64,000 bases of DNA from Elusimicrobia bacterium GWF2_62_30 (lineage in GTDB: Bacteria; Elusimicrobiota; Elusimicrobia; Elusimicrobiales; UBA9959): NCBI GenBank assembly GCA_001799995.1, contig MGUK01000007.1:25927-89926 (forward strand), in the 5' to 3' direction. The translations under genes were made by a program, and so were the position numbers. This document shows positions 5,174 to 60,619 of the stretch, one piece after another (the stretch's first letter is position 1; every line of letters begins with the position of its first letter). The notes under the pieces are model-generated. The model worked only from the letters and a program-made list of their open reading frames with translations, was not told the origin of the DNA and searched no databases.

Positions 5174-7252
5174 CTACTGGAGTTGGGAGAGGTCGGCCAC
5201 GCCTTCGAAAAGGTTCACCAGCGACTTTATAAGGTTCAGCCGGTTCTCCCGCACCTTCGGGTCTTCCGCCATCACCATCACCTTGTCGAAGAAGTTATCC
5301 AGGCTGCCTTTGATGGAAAGCAGCTCCGAAAGGCCTTTGGCGTAATCCCGGTCGCCGAGGTGGGCCTGCAGCCGCCCGGACAGCGACTTTATATCGCCGT
5401 AGAGGACCTTTTCCTCGTCCTTCTCGAAAGTACCTTCGTCGGGAGAGCCGTTCAGCGTGGACTTGGCCTGGCGCAGGATGTTCTTGGCGCGTTTGAAGGC
5501 CATGGCTATGCCGGCGAAATCCGGGTTGGCCCGCAGCGAGTGGATGTCCTTTATCCGCTCCCGGCAGTCCGGCAGGTCCGCGCCGGCCAGGAAGAACTCC
5601 CGCACGGCCTTTATCTCGTCGAAACGGTACCCTTCCTCGGAGAAGACGGCCTCCGCCCGCTGCCAGAGGAAATCCAGCAGCGGACCGGGCTCCCTCGCCC
5701 CAGCCGCCGGCGGCAGGGCGGCGAAAGCTTCGGCCACGGCCGCCCTGAAGTCCAGGCGCATGCCGTTTTCCAGGGCCAGGCGCACCGCGCCAAGGGCCTG
5801 CCGGCGGAGCCCGTGCGGGTCTTCGCTGCCGGAAGGTATCAGGCCCAGGGAAAAGTCGCAGGCCAGCGTATCGAGCTTGCCGGCCAGGGAGACCAGGGCG
5901 CCCTCAGCCGACGAAGGGAGGGGGGACCCGGCGGCGACGGGGCGATAGAATTCCCCGACGGCCCGGGAAACCTTTTCGCTCAGCCCGGAGTTCTTCGCGT
6001 AGTAGTAGCCCATTATCCCCTGCAGTTCGGTGAACTCGCGCACCAGGTTGCTGGTCAGGTCCGTATAGACATGCCGCGCCGCGGCAAGGACCTCTTCTTT
6101 GTCCGCCGGCAGGCCGCAGGCCCCGCAGAGCCAGCCGGCAAGTTTCTGCACCCGCGCGGTCTTATCGCTCATCGTGCCGAGCTTTTCCTGGAACGTGATC
6201 TCGCCGAGCTTTTTATTGAAGTCGGAGAGCGGCACGGCCAGGTCACGGGTATAGAAGAAGATGGCGTCGCGGAAGCGCGCTTCGAGCACGTTCTTAAAGC
6301 CTTCCTCGACGTTACGCTGCCCCCTGGAGACGCCGTCGCGGATCCCGACGAAATACGGCTGCAGCGCGCCTTTGGCGTCGGCCACCGTGAAGAACTTGAG
6401 CTGTTTCTTCATGACCAGGTGCACCAGCTCATGGGGCAGCTCCAGGAAGTCCTGCGAGTAGCCGGCCACCACGCAGACGGGGTATTCCACCAGGTAAAGG
6501 TTCTCGCTTAGCAGCTCCGGGTCGGCTTGCACCGAGAGCTTCATGCGCCTGGACAGCCGCTCTATCTCGCGGCGCAGCGCCTCCAGCCGCTCGGCGTCCT
6601 TGACCAGGACGTTGGCGTGTTCCAGCGTCTTGAAGTATTTTTCCGCGGAGGCTATCTTCACCTGCCGCGACCCCTTCGCGCTCAGGCCCGCGGTGACGCG
6701 CCCCGTCTTTATGCCGGCCACGGAGAACCCCACCGGCTTGTCGCCGTAAAGCGCCAGCAGGCCGCGGATCGGGCGGGCGAAGCGGAAACGCGTGCTCTCC
6801 CAGACCATGGTCTTGGGGAACTGCAGCCTGGAAATTATCGCGGGAAAGATCTCAGCGAGCGCCCTGCCCGACGGCCGCCCCGGGACCTTCGTTTCGAACA
6901 CCAGCACCTCGCCCTTGTTGGGCACGGTCTCGACGCCCAGCTTGTCCGGCGTGGTGCCGCGCGAGCGCGCAAAGCCGGCGGCCTGGGGAGTATAGTCTCC
7001 CTTTTCGTCCTTGAGAAGGCGCGCGGCGGGGCCGTAAGCCTTCTGCAGTTTTTCCTCGGTCCTGGCGGGAACGCCGGCGAGGTAAAGCACCAGCCGCTTG
7101 TAAGTGCCGCAGGCCTCTATGCCGTCGCAGGAAAGGTTGGCGGCGGCCAGCAGTTCGGCCGCGTATTTTTTCAGCTGCTCCTCGGCGGAGAGGACGAAAC
7201 GCGCGGGGATGTTCTCTATGCGGATCTCGAGCAGGGCGTCCCTCTTAAGCAT
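5174..7252 (-). CDS. glyS: Glycine--tRNA ligase beta subunit
   Basis: [19 protein letters not shown]... matches GlyS along its full length. The start at 7252 overlaps the glyQ stop by 8 nt. The track ORF extends to 7294. Confidence 0.9.
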
Positions 7253-8129
7253 TGGCTTTCTCCTTCTTTTCCGAAGGCTCGCTGAGCCCGACATAAGCCG
7301 CCGCGCAGGCCCTGGCGATGTCGCGGATGCGCTTGATGAGGACCGCCCGCTCCGAAACGGAGATGGCGCCGCGGGCGTCCAGCAGGTTGAAGTTCTGCGA
7401 GCATTTCATCACCAGGTCGAAAGCGGGCAGGTAGTAGCCCTTGCCGGCCAGGCGGAAGACCTCTTTTTCCCAGCGGTCGAAATTGAAACGGAGGTTCTCG
7501 ACGTCCGCCTCTTCGAAATTATAATGGGAGAACTGTTCCTCCTGGCCTTTATGGACTTCGCCGTAGGTCACGCGGTCGTTCCATTTTATATCGAAGATGC
7601 GCTTCTTTTTCTGGGCGAACATCGCCAGCCGCTCCAGGCCGTAGGTTATCTCCACGGTAACCGGGTTGAGCTCGAAGGAGGCCATCTGCTGGAAATACGT
7701 GAACTGCGTCACCTCCATCCCGTCGAGCCACACCTCCCAGCCCACCCCGGAAGCGCCCAGCGTCGGCGACTCCCAGTCGTCTTCTATCCAGCGGATATCG
7801 TGCTCCGCGTGGTCGATGCCGATGGCCTTCAGGGAGTCCAGGTAGACCTGCTGGATGTTGGCGGCCGGCGGCTTTATTATCACCTGGTACTGGTAATATT
7901 TCCCGAGGCGGTTGGGGTTGGCGCCGAAGCGCCCGTCCCCGGGGCGGCGGCACGGTTCGACATAGGCTACGCTGGCCGGCTTGACGGTGAGGGAGCCGAA
8001 GAACGTGGCGGGATTGAAGGTGCCGGCTCCTTTTTCCAGGTCGTAAGGCTGTATCAGGGCGCAGCCCTGCTTGGCCCAGAACTGGCCGAACTTCAAAATA
8101 ATTTCCTGGAAATTCACTGTTGCCTCCAT
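7245..8129 (-). CDS. glyQ: Glycine--tRNA ligase alpha subunit
   Basis: [44 protein letters not shown] is highly conserved GlyQ sequence. Confidence 0.95.
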
Positions 8130-8197
8130 GCGGCCGTGAGCCGCGACGATATTAGCGAATATTATACCTTAACGGGCGGAGGGGAGAAGGGGGGCGG

Positions 8198-8824
8198 TCA
8201 GCGCACGAACGGAAGAGTGCGCAGGTCCGCGCCGAGGGTTTCCGCGAAGAAGCGGGAGAACAGGCCGTCCACGAACACCTCCGTGGCCCTGTCCTCCTTC
8301 AGCGCGCGTACGTCCGCCCAGCTCCCGTCGTGCAGCGCCTCCCAGAGCCCGGCCTGCGGACCGGCGGCCGTTTCCCGGAAGCCGAAGCCCGCCAGGTTAA
8401 GCACCCGCAGCGTAAATGCCTGGCGCAGCCAGGGCGCCGGGCCGGAAACGTCCAGGTCGCGCAGCGCCCCCAGCAGCAGCCGGTATTTTTCAGGGGCGGG
8501 CTGCTGGGCCGCGGTGAGGCGGTTGATCACCTCGCAATAATGCAGGCCCAGGCAGAGGCTCTCCAGGTCCGCGCGTATGCCGCCGAAGGCGCACAGGGAA
8601 CTGCCGCCGGTGCAGACCGGGAAATTGGAACCCTTCTTGAGGTAGAAGCGGAAGTCGCCCCAGACCAGGGGCTCGCTGAGGGCGCGCAGTTTGCCTTTCG
8701 CCAGGCGCACGCTCTTGAAGTTGACTTCGAACTTTCCGCCGTTCTCGGTGAATACGGTGACGATCCTGTCGTTTTCACGCAGCGGACGTTTGTTGAGGAC
8801 TATCCCGTATTCGCAGAAGATCAT
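8198..8824 (-). CDS. recO: DNA repair protein RecO
   Basis: MIFCEYGIVLNKRPLRENDRIVTVFTENGGKF is a RecO OB-fold N-terminus. The track ORF (to 9055) has an Arg/Pro-rich extension that lies over the repeat element, so the start was trimmed to the ATG at 8822-8824. Confidence 0.8.
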   Translation of the reverse strand: MIFCEYGIVLNKRPLRENDRIVTVFTENGGKFEVNFKSVRLAKGKLRALSEPLVWGDFRFYLKKGSNFPVCTGGSSLCAFGGIRADLESLCLGLHYCEVINRLTAAQQPAPEKYRLLLGALRDLDVSGPAPWLRQAFTLRVLNLAGFGFRETAAGPQAGLWEALHDGSWADVRALKEDRATEVFVDGLFSRFFAETLGADLRTLPFVR

Positions 8825-8871
8825 AAGCCGGCTATATTCTACCAAAACCGCCACGCAACCACGGTGGGAAG

Positions 8872-9007
8872 GCAGGACAGGGCAGGGTATGGGTTCGGCA
8901 GGCCGTCTCGCAGGGCGAGGCTTGCGTAAGCGCCGAGCCCGAGAGGGAGCGCGGCCACGGTGTGGCCGATAGCGTGCCTGCCGGGCCCATACCCTGCCAT
9001 GTCCTGC
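8872..9007 (+). repeat. Nested-palindrome intergenic element, copy A
   Basis: 31-nt inverted arms at 8872-8902 and 8977-9007. The core carries GGC-ttgcgtaagc-GCC and GGCCAC-GGT-GTGGCC hairpins. Related copies lie at 26751-26907, 26954-27098 and 51972-52154. Confidence 0.85.
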
Positions 9008-9049
9008 TTCGCGGCGCGAGGAAGCGTAGCGCACATTATGGCGGCGGTT

Positions 9050-9078
9050 TTGCATTTTGCCGCCTTTATTTATATAAT
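9050..9078 (+). promoter_or_regulatory. Candidate sigma70-type promoter of rpmH
   Basis: TTGCAT (9050-9055), 17-nt spacer, perfect TATAAT (9073-9078). The rpmH ATG is only 9 nt downstream of the -10 hexamer and no SD is visible. Confidence 0.4.
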
Positions 9079-11595: not shown

Positions 11596-12732
11596 ATGAG
11601 AGAGACAAAGACAGAAGCCAAAACGATCCAGGACGCCGTCGAGAAGGGCCTTGCGGAAATGGGCCTTCGGCGCGACCAGGTCGAGGTGGTGGTAGTAACC
11701 GAAGGGACCTCGGGATTCCTCGGGTTCGGCGCTAAAAAAGCCTGCGTTATCCTCAGGGAAAAACGCTGGGCCAGCGGAACCGGCAGCGAGGAGCCGCGCG
11801 GACGCGGCCCCAGGCGCGACGGACGCGGCGGAGGCCCCAGGCGCGACGGACGCGGCGCAGGCCCCAGGCGCGAAGGCGGCCCCAGACGGGAAAGCCGTTC
11901 CGCCTCAGCCCCCAGGCGCCCCGGGCGCTACGGCTACGAAGACGCCAGGCTCCCGCCTGCGGCGTCCACGGAAGAACAACAGCAGCAGCCCCGTCCCGAA
12001 CGCGGGCCGAGAAGAGAGGGCGGCTACCAGGGCGGGTCACGGGACCGCGTCTACAAGGAAGAGCCCCTTGCGGCGGACTTCATGTCCATACAGCCCGCAC
12101 AGGACCCTGTGGAGCACGCGAAAGCCGCGCTGCTCAAGATAACCTCACTGATGGGGATGGAAACGACGGTGACCGAAGCCAGGCTCGAATCGGCGGAGAA
12201 CCTTATCTTCATCCGCTTCGAGTGCGCGGACCACACCGCGTTCACCGAAGAGAACGGGCGCGGGCTGCAGTCCCTGCAGTTCGTCGTCAACTCGATAGTC
12301 AGCCGCAAGCGCGAGCCGCACCCGGCCCTGCGCCTTGACACCGGCGGCTACTGGGACAAGAAAGAAAAGGAACTGGCCCGCCTGGTGGAGGACGCCGTCA
12401 ACTCTGTAAAGAGCACCGCCGCCCCGTTCAGGCTGGACCCCATGCCCGCTTCCATGAGGAAGATGGTGCATAACATGGTTAAGACCTCGTACCCCGGGAT
12501 GGAAACCACCTCCGAGGGCGAGGGCCGCTGGCGCAAAGTGGTGATCCGCCAGACGGAAACCGCGCAGACGGGAACCGTGCAGACGGAAACCGCGCAGGCG
12601 GAAGCCGTGCAGGCGGAAGCCGTGCGGACGGAAACCGCGCAGGCGGTAGCCGCCCCTGCCGCGGAAGCGGCGCCCGAGCAGGCGCCCGCCGTAGAGCAGA
12701 CGGTGGAAACGCAGCCTACAGAGCAGAAATAA
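11596..12732 (+). CDS. khpB: Jag/KhpB RNA-binding protein (Jag_N, KH, R3H) with low-complexity inserts
   Basis: Jag_N N-terminus (KTIQDAVEKGLAEMGL...VVVVTEGTSGFLGFG) and R3H-like C-terminal part (RLDPMPASMRKMVHNMV...). Conserved position after yidC. Confidence 0.8.
   Translation: MRETKTEAKTIQDAVEKGLAEMGLRRDQVEVVVVTEGTSGFLGFGAKKACVILREKRWASGTGSEEPRGRGPRRDGRGGGPRRDGRGAGPRREGGPRRESRSASAPRRPGRYGYEDARLPPAASTEEQQQQPRPERGPRREGGYQGGSRDRVYKEEPLAADFMSIQPAQDPVEHAKAALLKITSLMGMETTVTEARLESAENLIFIRFECADHTAFTEENGRGLQSLQFVVNSIVSRKREPHPALRLDTGGYWDKKEKELARLVEDAVNSVKSTAAPFRLDPMPASMRKMVHNMVKTSYPGMETTSEGEGRWRKVVIRQTETAQTGTVQTETAQAEAVQAEAVRTETAQAVAAPAAEAAPEQAPAVEQTVETQPTEQK
11806..11892 (+). repeat. 27-bp tandem repeat (about 3 units) inside jag, encoding GPRRDGRGG units
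   Basis: ggccccaggcgcgacggacgcggcgga repeats at 11806, 11833 and 11860 (degenerating). It is in frame and gives an Arg/Gly-rich linker. Confidence 0.8.
12550..12654 (+). repeat. 15-bp periodic tandem repeat (7 units) at the jag 3' end
   Basis: cagacggaaaccgcg-like units encode QTETA/QTGTV/QAEAV pentapeptide repeats. Confidence 0.8.
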
Positions 12733-26750: not shown

Positions 26751-26907
26751 AGTCGGGACGGTCACGGGGTGAGGGTTATCAAAACGCGCTCGGCACACCG
26801 TGCCTCGCTCTTCCTCCGGGCAAGAAAGTGTCGCTTCGCTCCACGCGGCGCTATGCAAGCCTCGGCCTCCGGAAGGGTTTGCTAACCCTCACCCCGTGCC
26901 CATCCCT
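26751..26907 (-). repeat. Nested-palindrome intergenic element, copy B1 (inverted orientation)
   Basis: Arms cacggggtgagggtta / taaccctcaccccgtg. The reverse complement carries gaggcttgcatagcgcc and GGCAC-GGT-GTGCC core hairpins. Confidence 0.8.
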
Positions 26908-26953: not shown

Positions 26954-27098
26954 GTCCGGAGGGGCGGACGCGGGGACCGGGTTAGCAAAACCTTCCGACG
27001 ACCGAGCCTTGCGTAAGCGGCGAGGGAGGAGGATGAGCGACGGGCACGGTGTGCCCTAGCGCGTTTTGCGTTCCGGTCCCCACGGCCACCCCGACCGG
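26954..27098 (+). repeat. Nested-palindrome intergenic element, copy B2
   Basis: Arms ggggaccgggttagcaaaac / gttttgcgttccggtcccc. Core gagccttgcgtaagcggc and GGGCAC-GGT-GTGCCC. Forms an inverted pair with B1. Confidence 0.8.
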
Positions 27099-58666: not shown

Positions 58667-59197
58667 TTATTTTTTATTTTTCTTGGGATCTTCCGGAACG
58701 GCGCAGACGGCTACGAGCTCCAGTTCGCAGGTCTTGTCCTCGCCGCTGTATTCCTCGAGGACAAGGCCGGTGCCGGGCGCGTAATAGCGCACGGACTTGC
58801 CCGCGTCGCCGCCGGCCAGCATCGTCACTATCTTCATGCATTTCGCGAACTTGCCAGCCTTGATGGAAACCTTGTCGGAAAGGGAGATCACCTCGCAGGA
58901 GTCCGGGGCTTCGGTCCACTTCGCCCCTTCCTTGACCGGGAGGGGGAACTCGCGGCGGCCGCCGGTTATAACGCCGTCGGTGGTGGTGAGCCACTTGGCG
59001 TCGCGGGTTACGGTATACTGGGTGGTATGGGAATCGCGCAGCTCGAAGATCATCCTGGCCTGCGCCAAGGCCTTGCCGGCTTTTTTCTTCACTTCGAGTA
59101 TGTCGATGAAGATCTTCGCCGTTCCTTCGAACTCGGAACTGGTGAACTTATACTCGTAGCGGGTCTTCTCTTTAAGCGGGAAATAATCTGCCGGCAT
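58667..59197 (-). CDS. Hypothetical protein (176 aa)
   Basis: GGAGAAAAAAATG RBS and start at 59197. The track ORF extension to 59272 runs into the tRNA-derived sequence and is rejected. Confidence 0.55.
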   Translation of the reverse strand: MPADYFPLKEKTRYEYKFTSSEFEGTAKIFIDILEVKKKAGKALAQARMIFELRDSHTTQYTVTRDAKWLTTTDGVITGGRREFPLPVKEGAKWTEAPDSCEVISLSDKVSIKAGKFAKCMKIVTMLAGGDAGKSVRYYAPGTGLVLEEYSGEDKTCELELVAVCAVPEDPKKNKK

Positions 59198-59226
59198 TTT
59201 TTTCTCCACCCTAGCCTGTAAGAATC

Positions 59227-59338
59227 TGGTGGACGTGACAGGGATCGAACCTGCGACCTCCTCGTTGCTCACTCGGCCTCTGGCGGCCTTCCGGCCGCCA
59301 GCGCCTCGTTCGAGGATACACGTCTCTGCTGCTACTCT
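59227..59338 (-). pseudogene. tRNA-Ala-derived unit d: exact 41-nt tRNA 3' part (anticodon-loop CAA to CCA) preceded by a hairpin insert and a degenerate 5' part
   Basis: 59227-59267 is identical to the 3' 41 nt of the intact tRNA. Upstream on the minus strand: CCTCG-AA-CGAGG, then GC-rich insert containing the CTGGCGGCC-GGAA-GGCCGCCAG hairpin. Confidence 0.7.
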
Positions 59339-59345
59339 AAAGATC

Positions 59346-59421
59346 TGGTGGACGTGACAGGGATCGAACCTGCGACCTCCTCGTTGCGAACGAGGCGCTC
59401 TCCCAACTGAGCTACACGCCC
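59346..59421 (-). tRNA. tRNA-Ala (anticodon CGC), CCA encoded
   Basis: GGGCGTGTAGCTCAGTTGGGAGAGCGCCTCGTTCGCAACGAGGAGGTCGCAGGTTCGATCCCTGTCACGTCCACCA folds into a full cloverleaf with the G3:U70 alanine identity pair and anticodon loop TTCGCAA. Confidence 0.92.
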
Positions 59422-59531
59422 AAATCTGTTTCGGAGATCGAACCTGCGACCTCCTCGTTGCTCACTTCGGGCTCGGCGTCCTGCTGGCCGCCAGCGCCCT
59501 GCGGGCGCTCTCCCAACTGAGCTACACGCCC
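59422..59531 (-). pseudogene. tRNA-Ala-derived unit b (110 nt): 5' 28 nt and internal 26 nt of the tRNA, 42-nt insert at the anticodon position, no 3' acceptor strand
   Basis: GGGCGTGTAGCTCAGTTGGGAGAGCGCC + CGCAGGGCGCTGGCGGCCAGCAGGACGCCGAGCCCGAAGTGA + GCAACGAGGAGGTCGCAGGTTCGATC + TCCGAAACAGATTT. Confidence 0.75.
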
Positions 59532-59641
59532 AAATCTGTTTCGGAGATCGACCCTGCGACCTCCTCGTTGCTCACTTCGGGCTCGGCGTCCTGCTGGCCG
59601 CCAGCGCCCTCCGGGCGCTCTCCCAACTGAGCTACACGCCC
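59532..59641 (-). pseudogene. tRNA-Ala-derived unit a (110 nt), tandem copy of unit b
   Basis: Differs from unit b at two positions (GCA to GGA in the hairpin triloop, and GGTTCG to GGGTCG). Begins 10 nt after the mltG stop. Confidence 0.75.
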
Positions 59642-59650
59642 AAAAAACGT

Positions 59651-60619
59651 TTATTTCCCTTCTTTCGCCGCTTTCTCTATGCTCTTCTTGGCTTTAAGAT
59701 GCTCTTTAAAATTCGCGTTAAAGATGTGCTTTCCTTTACGGTCGGCCACAAAATACAGCGCGTCGAAATTAGCCGGCGCCAGGGCCGCTTCTATCGAACT
59801 GCGGCCGGGGTTGCATATCGGCCCCGGGGGAAGCCCGTTCACGACATACGTGTTGTAAGGCGACTTGACCTTGAGGTCCTTGTACGTAAGCCCCTTCTTC
59901 CAGTACGTCTGCCCTTTTTCCGAGTAGCCGAGAGCGTACTGCGTGGTCGGGTCGGCCTCAAGCGCCATCTTCCTGCGGTAGCGGTTGATGTACACCGCCG
60001 CTATCAGCGGCCGCTCGCTGTCATCCACCGCCTCGCGCTCCACTATGGACGCTATAATGAGGGTTTTCGGCTCATCCAGCCCCGCGGCGAAACCTTTAGA
60101 GAACAGAGACCTTACCTGCCTGTCGAATTCTGATTTTAGCAAATTTATCACTTCCTGCGGCGGCATATTTTTTTTCAGATGGTACGTCGAAGGGAAAAGA
60201 TAGCCCTCCAGCTTCTGAGCGCGGGCCAGCTCCAGGAACTTCGCCGCCGGGGCGATACCGTTGGCCTCGAGTCTTTCGGCCACCTGCTCCATGCGCCACC
60301 CTTCAGGCAGCACCACTTTCACGGAGGTTATATAGACGCTGTGCGTCAGCCGCCACAGGGCTTCTTCCGCCGACATATATTCCCGCAGGGAATATTCCCC
60401 GGGCATTATGCGCTTGCCGGTGCCGGTCACCTTCACCAGCAGCTTGAACCAGGTCCCGCTCAGGATGATGCCCCGCTCCTTGAGTATGGCGGCGGCCTGC
60501 CTTGCGGTAGCGCCTTCCGGGATGGCGACCGCAGCCGGTTTACCGGGCCAGAAAAGATAGACCGAGAGGAGCAGCAGCGCTGCCGCGGTGAAACCCAGAA
60601 GTAATTTAAATTTCCTCAT
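59651..60619 (-). CDS. mltG: Endolytic murein transglycosylase MltG (YceG-like)
   Basis: N-terminal TM helix. EGYLFPSTY, ASIVEREA and SPYNTYVVNGLPPGPICNPG motifs. Confidence 0.88.
   Translation of the reverse strand: MRKFKLLLGFTAAALLLLSVYLFWPGKPAAVAIPEGATARQAAAILKERGIILSGTWFKLLVKVTGTGKRIMPGEYSLREYMSAEEALWRLTHSVYITSVKVVLPEGWRMEQVAERLEANGIAPAAKFLELARAQKLEGYLFPSTYHLKKNMPPQEVINLLKSEFDRQVRSLFSKGFAAGLDEPKTLIIASIVEREAVDDSERPLIAAVYINRYRRKMALEADPTTQYALGYSEKGQTYWKKGLTYKDLKVKSPYNTYVVNGLPPGPICNPGRSSIEAALAPANFDALYFVADRKGKHIFNANFKEHLKAKKSIEKAAKEGK

Follow-up and report, generated by a model that had tools for sequence, protein, structure and literature searches.

A lineage-wide family of ~135-nt intergenic hairpin repeats with a covarying three-way-junction core, apparently undescribed, in groundwater Elusimicrobia

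A stretch of 64,000 nucleotides from contig MGUK01000007.1 of Elusimicrobia bacterium GWF2_62_30 (assembly GCA_001799995.1, positions 25,927 to 89,926 of the forward strand), referred to here as the window, carries a long palindromic element, named copy A, between two divergent genes. Pfam identified these as recO (8198-8824, minus strand) and rpmH (ribosomal protein L34, 9088-9240), and also found rnpA, in agreement with the flanks assumed by the original prediction, which had been made from the letters of the DNA alone. Copy A belongs to an apparently undescribed family of ~135-nt intergenic repeats of groundwater Elusimicrobia, and it is practically certain that the family is real and that its fold is selected. 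A repeat search placed the two arms of the element, which form helix P1, at 8872-8903 and 8976-9007 (32 nt, 91% complementary, 72 nt between them). Read base by base, they make 29 Watson-Crick pairs, two T·G pairs (8894-8895 facing 8984-8985) and one G·A pair, so that the arms first proposed, of 31 nt with 28 Watson-Crick and two T/G pairs, were right to within one position. Both of the small hairpins predicted in the core were also seen: GGC-TT-GC-GTAA-GC-GCC (8919-8934), nested in a longer arm at 8913-8940, and the hairpin of helix P4. The features of the locus are as follows.

8810-8838, plus strand: promoter-like site TTCGCA-17-TATATT, a consensus match only, which could read copy A in sense
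8872-8903, plus strand: 5′ arm of P1, with weaker pairing outward to ~8866 (repeat search and fold)
8874-9005, plus strand: copy A as delimited by a covariance model (133 of 133 model positions; cmsearch 119.7 bits, E = 2.8e-25)
8907-8945, plus strand: P2/P3 arm, in which CTC...GAG closes GGGC-GA-GGC-TT-GC-GTAA-GC-GCC-GA-GCCC (fold, and covariation of P2 and P3)
8952-8968, plus strand: P4 hairpin CGGCCAC-GGT-GTGGCCG (fold, cmsearch alignment and covariation)
8976-9007, plus strand: 3′ arm of P1, with weaker pairing outward to ~9011 (repeat search and fold)
9009-9033, plus strand: degenerate partial repeat of the 5′ half of P2/P3 (TCGCGGCGCGAGGAAGCGTAGCGC), inside the inserted block described below (repeat search and direct reading)
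9049-9078, plus strand: promoter-like site of rpmH, TTTGCA-18-TATAAT, downstream of copy A and untouched by the insertion

Within the P2/P3 arm of copy A, an internal loop of tandem G·A pairs and a bulge of TT lead to a GTAA loop of the GNRA/GNNA type, and the outer GGGG/CCCC of the family-consensus P4 is unpaired in this copy according to the NC line of the cmsearch alignment. Folding of the plus strand of 8865-9012 as RNA gave -106.4 kcal/mol (z = -8.8), a value reached by none of 200 shuffled sequences, and DNA parameters gave -59.8 kcal/mol (z = -9.15). The minus strand folds nearly as well, as that of any long palindrome must. The partial second core predicted beyond the right arm proved to be a degenerate repeat of 8908-8934, extending over 9009-9033; its first 13 nt are 85% identical to the original, after which it reads AAGCGTAGCGC against TGCGTAAGCGC. 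The whole element sits between the rpmH promoter and the minus-strand -10 box of recO (TGGTAGAAT). The site at 8810-8838, which is weaker than that of rpmH, overlaps both this box and the recO start.

The extent of the family was established with a covariance model of 62 full-length copies, comprising 133 positions and 57 pairs. It finds exactly four matches in the window, copies A (119.7 bits), C (83.5), B (56.9) and D (47.3), and these include the three further copies that had been expected at 26.8, 27.0 and 52.0 kb.

26755-26906, minus strand: copy B, with the extra hairpin module GTGGAGCGAAGCGACAC, head-to-head with copy C
26961-27092, plus strand: copy C, between a Mur-ligase gene (murF by position) and a convergent peptidase C11 gene
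51976-52152, plus strand: copy D, in the hisS-aspS spacer, with two extra hairpin modules

Scanning one genome per species with the core pattern CTTGCGTAAGCGNCG-N15-45-CACGGTGTG returned at least 110 loci, several per genome, and the classified loci among the matches listed all come from metagenome-assembled genomes (MAGs) of Elusimicrobia, Elusimicrobiales or Elusimicrobiaceae. The apex of the element is invariant in these first 110 loci by virtue of the pattern used to retrieve them. The covariance model recognised 126 copies in 717 kb of loci L001-L100 and another 19 in loci L101-L123, two of which are copy D itself, giving ~145 matches beyond the window in ~0.85 Mb of Elusimicrobia MAG loci. 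What had been proposed as a repeat family from four copies is therefore represented by well over 100 copies across many MAGs, with a usual length of 131-137 nt and a density of roughly one copy per 15-60 kb; the context data given below cover ~8 kb around each copy. At gathering thresholds, Rfam 15 recognised only one tRNA anywhere in the window; scans with relaxed thresholds, of copy A, of copies B and C and of the best-scoring copy, L095, returned only miRNA-precursor, C4 and other hairpin-type noise far below threshold (one such match had 36 bits where 100 are required). The core pattern had no match in viral contigs, blastn against plasmids found nothing, and a literature search that included the core sequence as text revealed no mention of the family or of any interspersed repeat or structured non-coding element of Elusimicrobia. 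These empty Rfam, plasmid, viral and literature searches agree with the statement that the element corresponds to no known RNA, REP or MITE family. Neither of the two outcomes looked for that would have spoken against the original prediction, a restriction to four copies without covariation or a match to a known family, was encountered.

Across the family, the ~30 bp of stem P1 start from both ends of the element and close a compact three-way junction. The first branch consists of P2 (~6 bp), followed by a GGA/GA loop and by P3, with the consensus RGSC-GA-GGC-UU-GC-GUAA-GC-GCC-GA-GSCY, and the second branch is P4, GGGG-CG-GSCAC-GGU-GUGSC-CG-A-CCCC, with a bulged A. Tandem G·A sites occur in P3, at the P2/P3 junction and, in one subgroup, at the base of P1 (G-GA-GGGG / CCCC-GA-C); the G·A step of P3 is exchanged for Watson-Crick pairs in some copies (CCCGGC/GCCGGG, CUCCGGC/GCCGGAG and CCGCGGC/GCCGCGG). 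An extra hairpin module, GUG-GA-GC-GAA-GC-GA-CAC or, in L071, GUGGAC-GAA-GUCCAC, is inserted at varying positions of the junction in copies that include B and D of the window, L038, L067 and L071. The inner part of P1 defines subfamilies, GGGUUAGCAAAAC/GUUUUGCGUUCC in copies B and C, AUGGGUUCGGCGGGC/GCCCGCCGGGCCCAU in copies A and D, and UAUGCCUUCG... in others, several of which coexist side by side in each genome.

The comparison of copies demonstrated that the fold is under selection. In the model-fitted alignment, which leans towards the model and in which the copies of a subfamily are not independent events, 86.0% of 6707 paired cells can pair, in contrast to 63.1% after column shuffling (none of 500 shuffles reached the observed value) and to 37-47% when the structures were slid by 1-3 columns. 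Both sides have changed in 51 of the 57 pairs, and the covariation score was 0.487 against 0.142. RNAalifold, applied to a structure-blind MAFFT alignment, recovered P2, P3 and P4, including one P2 pair with five pair types, and copies occupying the same position in different MAGs lie 2-12 double compensatory substitutions apart. The two-sided stem changes noticed among the window copies, GGC/GCC to GCC/GGC and GGCCAC/GTGGCC to GGGCAC/GTGCCC, are both real: 59 copies have C-G and 57 have G-C at column pair 54/94, and at column pair 135/174 the numbers are 63 with C-G and 59 with G-C. With covariation far above both controls, the claim that a conserved structure, and not chance GC-rich similarity, unites the copies was borne out. 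A coding origin of the conserved core was rejected, because the spacing between hairpins varies by non-multiples of three and the variation is compensatory by pairs.

A scan of metagenomes with RecO revealed four relatives (L111-L114, RecO 76-89% identical) in which the recO-rpmH spacer is short, ATGCAAAACC-CCGGCCGGGAT-GTTTTGTAGAAT, and in which the covariance model has no match. L111 carries a variant of this spacer with a stronger hairpin, CCGCGGGG-CGCG-CCCCCGCGG, with A and T runs on its sides. The comparison defined the following features in the window.

8843-8852, no strand assigned: left half of a host palindrome (CAAAACCGCC), with its partner at 9043-9052 (10 nt, 100% complementary)
8853-9039, plus strand: inserted block of ~187 bp with copy A, missing from L111-L114
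9043-9052, no strand assigned: right half of the host palindrome (GGCGGTTTTG), overlapping the -35 box of rpmH

Deletion of 8853-9039 gives back the 21-nt distance between the rpmH -35 and the recO -10 of the relatives, where the host palindrome is unbroken. The restored spacing and the rejoined palindrome halves indicate that copy A lies in a block of ~187 bp inserted at the centre of the palindrome, and the insertion breaks neither of the two divergent core promoters. As a separate observation, the small GC-rich palindrome present between the divergent promoters at L111:2940-3000 and at the same position in L112-L114, with A/T runs beside it, looks like a bidirectional terminator. The outer CAAAAC/GTTTTG halves of this palindrome resemble the inner stem of type-2 elements, a likeness by which these 'empty' spacers might be not truly naive but remnants of an older copy.

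Other spacers showed that the occupancy of a site changes between relatives. The hisS-aspS spacer is a hot spot: it contains a type-1 copy in the window and in L121, a type-2 copy in L118 and L005, and a hairpin with an unrelated core, belonging to a second family, in L117, and it is empty (50-63 nt) in L115, L116, L122 and L123. AspS of L115-L118 and L121-L123 is 86-90% identical to that of the window, and aspS of L005 is 81% identical at the DNA level. Downstream of secA, the spacer of L017 holds other subtypes in other orientations than those of L049 and L064, and in L055 and L086, whose flanks are 84-94% identical, the elements lie in opposite orientations and are only 69% identical. Pairs of filled and empty sites were also found within operons, between an acyl-CoA dehydrogenase gene and etfB, where a stop-start TAGCATG is replaced by a spacer of ~210 nt, and between lpxD and lpxC. 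Copies have thus very probably been gained and lost between relatives. These events left no consistent duplication of the target, since the longest direct match in the two flanks averaged 5.48 nt in 116 copies, against 5.33 nt in controls with mismatched flanks. Of these 116 copies, L015 alone has a long flanking duplication (7100-7400; compared with L082:4608-4646), where 18 bp (ATGCTGATCTTCCGGATG), corresponding to codons 1-6 of a lolE-like permease gene, are present on both sides, and at the junction of L037 there is an inverted, diverged copy of the last codons of the upstream gene. This L037 junction and the host palindrome split by copy A bear on the idea that the outer stem is copied from the target, which was in part rejected: the outer stems share a family resemblance (of the GGSBKGRCRAGGG type), which indicates that they are inherited.

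The search for mobilising machinery gave no candidate. No transposase-like open reading frame (ORF) recurs near the copies, the all-against-all clustering of 677 ORFs having produced only housekeeping and paralogous families. For the Y1 transposases, tblastn of the window and 114 loci gave a best E of 0.028; TnpB, IS110 and reverse transcriptase were not queried. The statement that the window lacks RAYT, TnpA and TnpB genes consequently stands for the Y1 transposases only, for which nothing significant appeared.

All copies are intergenic, and often they begin a few nt from a stop codon. Among 85 classifiable copies, 24 are in tandem sense and 33 in tandem antisense orientation, 18 are convergent and 10 divergent, and a second count between co-directional genes gave 24 sense against 38 antisense. 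There is thus no consistent sense orientation of the kind a cis-acting mRNA element would have. Likewise, the 115 copies inspected for an own promoter or terminator, as a small-RNA gene would possess, showed neither a positional enrichment of -10-like boxes nor a T-run; the flanks (-25 to -1 and +1 to +25) revealed no conserved promoter, terminator or target motif beyond the continuation of the stem, and promoter scans around copies B, C and D were empty. Several copies have a canonical intrinsic terminator beside them, and two of these, in L008 and L032, are located past it. Orientation was unbiased with respect to local GC skew (57 vs 68), a weak test with windows of 8 kb. Neighbouring copies no more than 250 nt apart are arranged head-to-head in 16 cases, including copies B and C, tail-to-tail in one and in tandem in one, whereas random orientation would give 25% head-to-head; the members of a doublet are usually of different subtypes. 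A conserved spacer of ~50 nt was observed within head-to-head doublets (L016:345-395, L091:2185-2234, L051:133-184, L077:1710-1759 and L098:4249-4297). It has -10-like boxes on both strands, with TTAARTYGAG on one and TGATAAAGT on the other, and might serve as a promoter in both directions or form the middle of a larger composite unit. In L051 and L077, the whole doublet recurs at least twice at different loci of one genome.

The mismatches within the stems distinguish the two strands of the element. In a DNA-style alignment of the P1 arms, G·T pairs outnumbered A·C pairs (111 vs 36), and purine·purine and T·T mismatches far exceeded C·T and C·C. A G·T asymmetry along the whole stem, as the first figure would have it, was ruled out by per-column counts: the excess of G·T over A·C comes from a few subfamily-conserved positions of the core and inner stem (144 vs 54) and is absent from the hypervariable outer stem (57 vs 51). 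The outer stem contains 135 purine·purine and 27 pyrimidine·pyrimidine mismatches. When copies were separated by orientation, G·U and A·C numbered 18 and 5 over the whole of P1 in sense copies and 33 and 12 in antisense copies, and, over the outer two-thirds of P1, 12 and 8 in sense and 29 and 19 in antisense copies (Fisher p = 1.0). Pairing of the outer two-thirds, calculated from the pair counts, was 90.7% in sense and 90.8% in antisense copies, and purine·purine greatly exceeded pyrimidine·pyrimidine in both groups alike. The equality of the asymmetry in the two groups implies that one defined strand bears the selected fold and that this strand is not chosen by host transcription.

The loop and mismatch motifs are compatible with RNA and with single-stranded DNA alike. 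Loops of the GNRA type and tandem G·A pairs are hallmarks of RNA; in DNA, mini-hairpins of exceptional stability are formed by C-GNNA-G and GC-GAA-GC, and no mismatches are more stable than G·T and G·A. The T/G pairs of the arms, said in the original prediction to pair only when read as RNA, form in single-stranded DNA too and by themselves are no sign of RNA. Its implied preference for a structured RNA was not upheld by the context either, given that antisense copies are as frequent as sense ones and pair equally well, that a shared promoter or terminator is missing and that copies are present or absent between close relatives.

A second family of long hairpins was also seen. Its core, GGGGAAGGGGGGCCCCG...GGGGGGAACCGCGCAACGGUUCC (also given as GGGGAAGGGGGGCCCCG...GGGGGGAACCGCGCAACGGTTCC), forms a three-way junction unrelated to that of the first family. 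It recurs in nine further loci, often within ~100 nt of a first-family copy, and occupies in other genomes the same spacers as the first family; it was not found in the window. Sites of this family include the following.

L040:670-795
L117:1790-1925
also L001, L011, L075, L089 and L110, as loci

Members of both families can have one and the same closing stem, CCGGAGGGGTGGC.../...CAGGCCCCCGAC, with TNNGCATCTCGCGGT as 3′ tail. The L001 copy of the second family has the full closing stem, CCGGAGGGGUGGC... / ...CAGGCCCCCGAC, and the tail that type-1 copies of the first family have, and the copies of L110 and L059 share the tail only. The tail, UNNGCAUCUCGCGGU, occurs ~16 times, always 7-19 nt past a hairpin. 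Conserved termini characterise a subgroup with the ends GGAGGGG... / ...CCCCGAC plus the tail, shared with the second family, and shared ends with differing interiors are the pattern expected if a mobilising machinery recognises the ends. As judged from these sequences, the two families would make up a superfamily with a common 'shell', composed of closing stem and 3′ tail, and exchangeable apices.

The presence of many intergenic copies, their gain, loss and replacement at hot spots, their independence from transcription, the lack of expression signals, target duplications and a local transposase, the inverted doublets and the shared ends together group these elements with the REP/REPIN/BIME, ERIC and Correia-type repeats. 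By this analogy, copy A would belong to a lineage-wide superfamily of short non-coding interspersed repeats akin to REP/REPIN, ERIC and Correia. The asymmetry tied to the strand of the element, in turn, suggests that this strand passes through a single-stranded stage during propagation. The explanation that we favour, with about an even chance of being right, is a mobile repeat of the REP/ERIC kind, non-autonomous and multiplied by way of a single-stranded hairpin that one strand alone provides. Such an element would spread, or would have spread, via a single-stranded hairpin intermediate of the plus strand, preferably a single-stranded DNA handled by a trans-acting enzyme of the HUH/Y1 type or by another structure-specific enzyme, or alternatively an RNA intermediate. 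The conserved apex would be the recognition module and the long stem would serve to present it. At the recO/rpmH site, the element would have landed in the centre of a pre-existing small palindrome between divergent core promoters without harming either of them. When co-transcribed with a host gene, the hairpin may serve secondarily as an RNA 3′-end, a stability signal or an RNase III signal.

The closest likeness is with REP, REPIN and BIME repeats of Enterobacteria and Pseudomonas, which are extragenic, present in many copies per genome and persistent throughout a lineage. They are imperfect palindromes that act as single-strand hairpins without target-site duplication, they are found in both orientations, often just past genes, and they form inverted doublets and mosaic clusters with other motifs. 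They are mobilised by RAYT, a Y1 HUH transposase. The predominance of head-to-head pairs described above (16, against one tail-to-tail and one tandem) reproduces the inverted doublets. This family differs in being four times longer (~135 nt vs 20-40 nt), in having a conserved three-way-junction apex instead of a simple loop, in lacking a conserved GTAG-type 5′ tetranucleotide in its flank and end profiles, in doublet partners that are usually of different subtypes and in having no RAYT gene near any sampled copy, as far as Y1 queries could find one. By description, ERIC/IRU (127 bp, Enterobacteria) and Correia/NEMIS (Neisseria) are, as the present family is, intergenic imperfect palindromes of ~100-150 bp with a conserved internal region and variants with extra internal blocks; they form a hairpin when co-transcribed and vary in presence among related strains. 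They differ by their TA target duplications and recognisable terminal repeats, where the elements described here have no duplication and variable outer arms, and also in that the covarying three-way-junction core and the other host phylum are particular to the latter. The family is therefore unlike REP/REPIN/BIME, ERIC and Correia in its length, its covarying three-way-junction apex and its modular cores.

Two other systems that operate on single strands share part of these properties. Palindrome-associated elements (PATEs) derived from IS200/IS605 and other derivatives of HUH single-strand transposons need no terminal inverted repeats and make no target duplication. Their activity is strand-specific and relies on an imperfect hairpin in single-stranded DNA; a dependence of this kind would account for an asymmetry that belongs to the element itself. 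In contrast to the single long stem that here joins both ends, they have two separate subterminal hairpins in direct orientation, and they insert beside a fixed tetra- or pentanucleotide, whereas the flanks of this family contain no conserved target and TnpA was not found. The attC sites of integrons are single-strand hairpins of 57-141 nt, conserved in structure and varied in sequence, that are exchanged at fixed sites. In them the base of the stem is conserved (R and L boxes, GTTRRRY) and the apex is variable, the reverse of what is seen here; on direct reading, the R''/R' boxes (RYYYAAC / GTTRRRY) are absent from our elements, the stem bases of which are GGAGGGG/CCCCGAC or variable, and their context shows no cassettes and no intI gene.

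Several observations weigh against a mobile repeat of this kind. No mobilising enzyme and no autonomous parent element were found within the sampled loci. The apex and not the termini is the most conserved part across the family, the reverse of a classical element with terminal inverted repeats, although in the first 110 loci the retrieval pattern itself fixed the apex. Several features seen here are typical of functional RNAs: the GNRA-type loop, the three tandem G·A motifs, the hairpins added to the junction and, within the inner stem, a run of G·U/U·U/U·G. Copies at the same position keep their pairing through compensatory changes, which suggests that selection acts at the host locus too and not solely in an active master copy. 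The boundaries of the insertions are blurred by the 18-bp duplication of L015 and the inverted copy of L037, so that no single insertion chemistry is evident, and the unbiased orientation with GC skew lends no support to lagging-strand targeting, within the limits of that weak test.

The most serious competitor is a family of functional structured RNAs, either small RNA genes or cis-acting modules of mRNAs in 3′ UTRs (untranslated regions) or intercistronic regions, whose three-way junction would bind a protein, control decay or terminate transcription. We consider it unlikely, though worth keeping in view. It would account for the very strong covariation in all four helices, for the GUAA tetraloop closed by C-G and the tandem sheared G·A pairs swapped for Watson-Crick pairs in some copies, for the G·U/U·U runs that pair on the plus strand only and for junction hairpins added in the manner of RNA expansion segments. 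That many copies begin shortly after a stop codon also agrees with it, and the ~50-nt spacer of the head-to-head doublets (TTAARTYGAG, TGATAAAGT) and the promoter-like site at 8810-8838 could provide transcription, the first as a bidirectional promoter and the second by reading copy A in sense. The genomic data point the other way. Between co-directional genes, antisense copies are at least as numerous as sense ones in both counts, the quality of the structure and the strand asymmetry are equal in the two groups, and the flanks share neither a promoter nor a terminator across the family. Copy A itself is located between divergent core promoters, some copies stand past terminators, close relatives lack an element in essential housekeeping spacers, and no Rfam family matches. 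A stand-alone or mRNA-embedded functional RNA is for these reasons less likely than a mobile repeat.

A different kind of mobility, quite improbable in our estimation, is that the repeats are substrates of a structure-targeted exchange system, in which the shell would be established at preferred intergenic hot spots and three-way-junction apices would be inserted or swapped. The apices would be exchanged via a strand-specific single-stranded intermediate and new units would land in the apices of existing palindromes. If true, this would represent a mobile-element chemistry outside the DDE, HUH/REP, integron and retroelement paradigms, or else, as its alternative, a multi-copy protein-binding or catalytic nucleic acid.

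It is very doubtful that the repeats are a host signal at the DNA level, acting as an extruded hairpin, cruciform or single-stranded DNA at which a nucleoid, topoisomerase, primosome or recombination protein binds or is loaded, and spreading only as a by-product of recombination. BIMEs that bind gyrase and IHF and single-strand initiation signals offer precedents. Such a signal would be indifferent to transcription, as the orientation of the copies is, and would require that intra-strand complementarity be kept, as it is in an outer stem with no bias of G·U over A·C. The fold is equally good with DNA parameters, the loops GC-GTAA-GC and, in the extra module, GC-GAA-GC are very stable DNA mini-hairpins, and the copies cluster in mosaics with the second hairpin family. 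However, the orientation shows no bias with local GC skew, the presence or absence of copies at housekeeping spacers argues against a required positional function, there is no known binding protein and the strand asymmetry of the inner stem and core would be needless in a double-stranded DNA site. Finally, a classical MITE (miniature inverted-repeat transposable element), that is, a deletion derivative of an insertion sequence (IS) with a DDE transposase, moved by cut-and-paste through its terminal inverted repeats, fits the size, copy number, intergenic location, long inverted arms and documented insertion polymorphism, as well as the termini (GGAGGGG... / ...CCCCGAC) conserved in a subset and common to two families with unrelated interiors, but is highly improbable given flanking direct repeats no longer than in the controls, outer arms that are the most variable part family-wide, an asymmetric interior that is the most conserved one, and the failure to find in 114 loci an IS with matching ends or a transposase.

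Other features of the window are listed for completeness. A tRNA-Ala(CGC) gene (59346-59421, minus strand) lies within an array of tRNA-like units at 59180-59680. Two upstream units of 110 nt share its 5′ half (GGGCGTGTAGCTCAGTTGGGAGAGCGCC), with a 46-nt GC-rich insert in the place of the anticodon arm and a T-arm without the acceptor 3′ strand, and one downstream unit consists of a 3′ half ending in CACGTCCACCA; ARAGORN and Rfam call only one unit of the array a tRNA. Pseudo-tRNAs, integration remnants or an odd split arrangement are possible explanations. The ORF at 11596-12732, downstream of yidC, contains in-frame tandem repeats at 12535-12669 and 11797-11877 (~7 copies of the 15-nt unit CAGACGGAAACCGCG and three of a 27-nt unit, respectively), which points to a low-complexity, repeat-bearing region of the protein. 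An ORF of 478 aa opposite glyQ and recO (7104-8540, plus strand) has a GC content by codon position of 0.69 / 0.50 / 0.68; it lacks the third-position peak of the real genes of this DNA (~0.8) and is regarded as an artefact of high GC content and not as a gene.

Elusimicrobia are known almost only from metagenomes, and the family described here has been kept across many MAGs labelled from the level of phylum to that of family (Elusimicrobiales, Elusimicrobiaceae), with a covariation signal that is among the clearest obtainable without experiments. Its copies explain the swollen spacers found in housekeeping operons such as hisS-aspS, cydA-cydB and lpxD-lpxC, and can be used as markers in assembly, binning and strain typing. 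The family also offers a test case for the spread of long hairpin repeats that neither duplicate their target nor have a transposase nearby. Should the apex be a module for recognition by a protein, the partner protein would be a concrete target for discovery by phylogenetic profiling.

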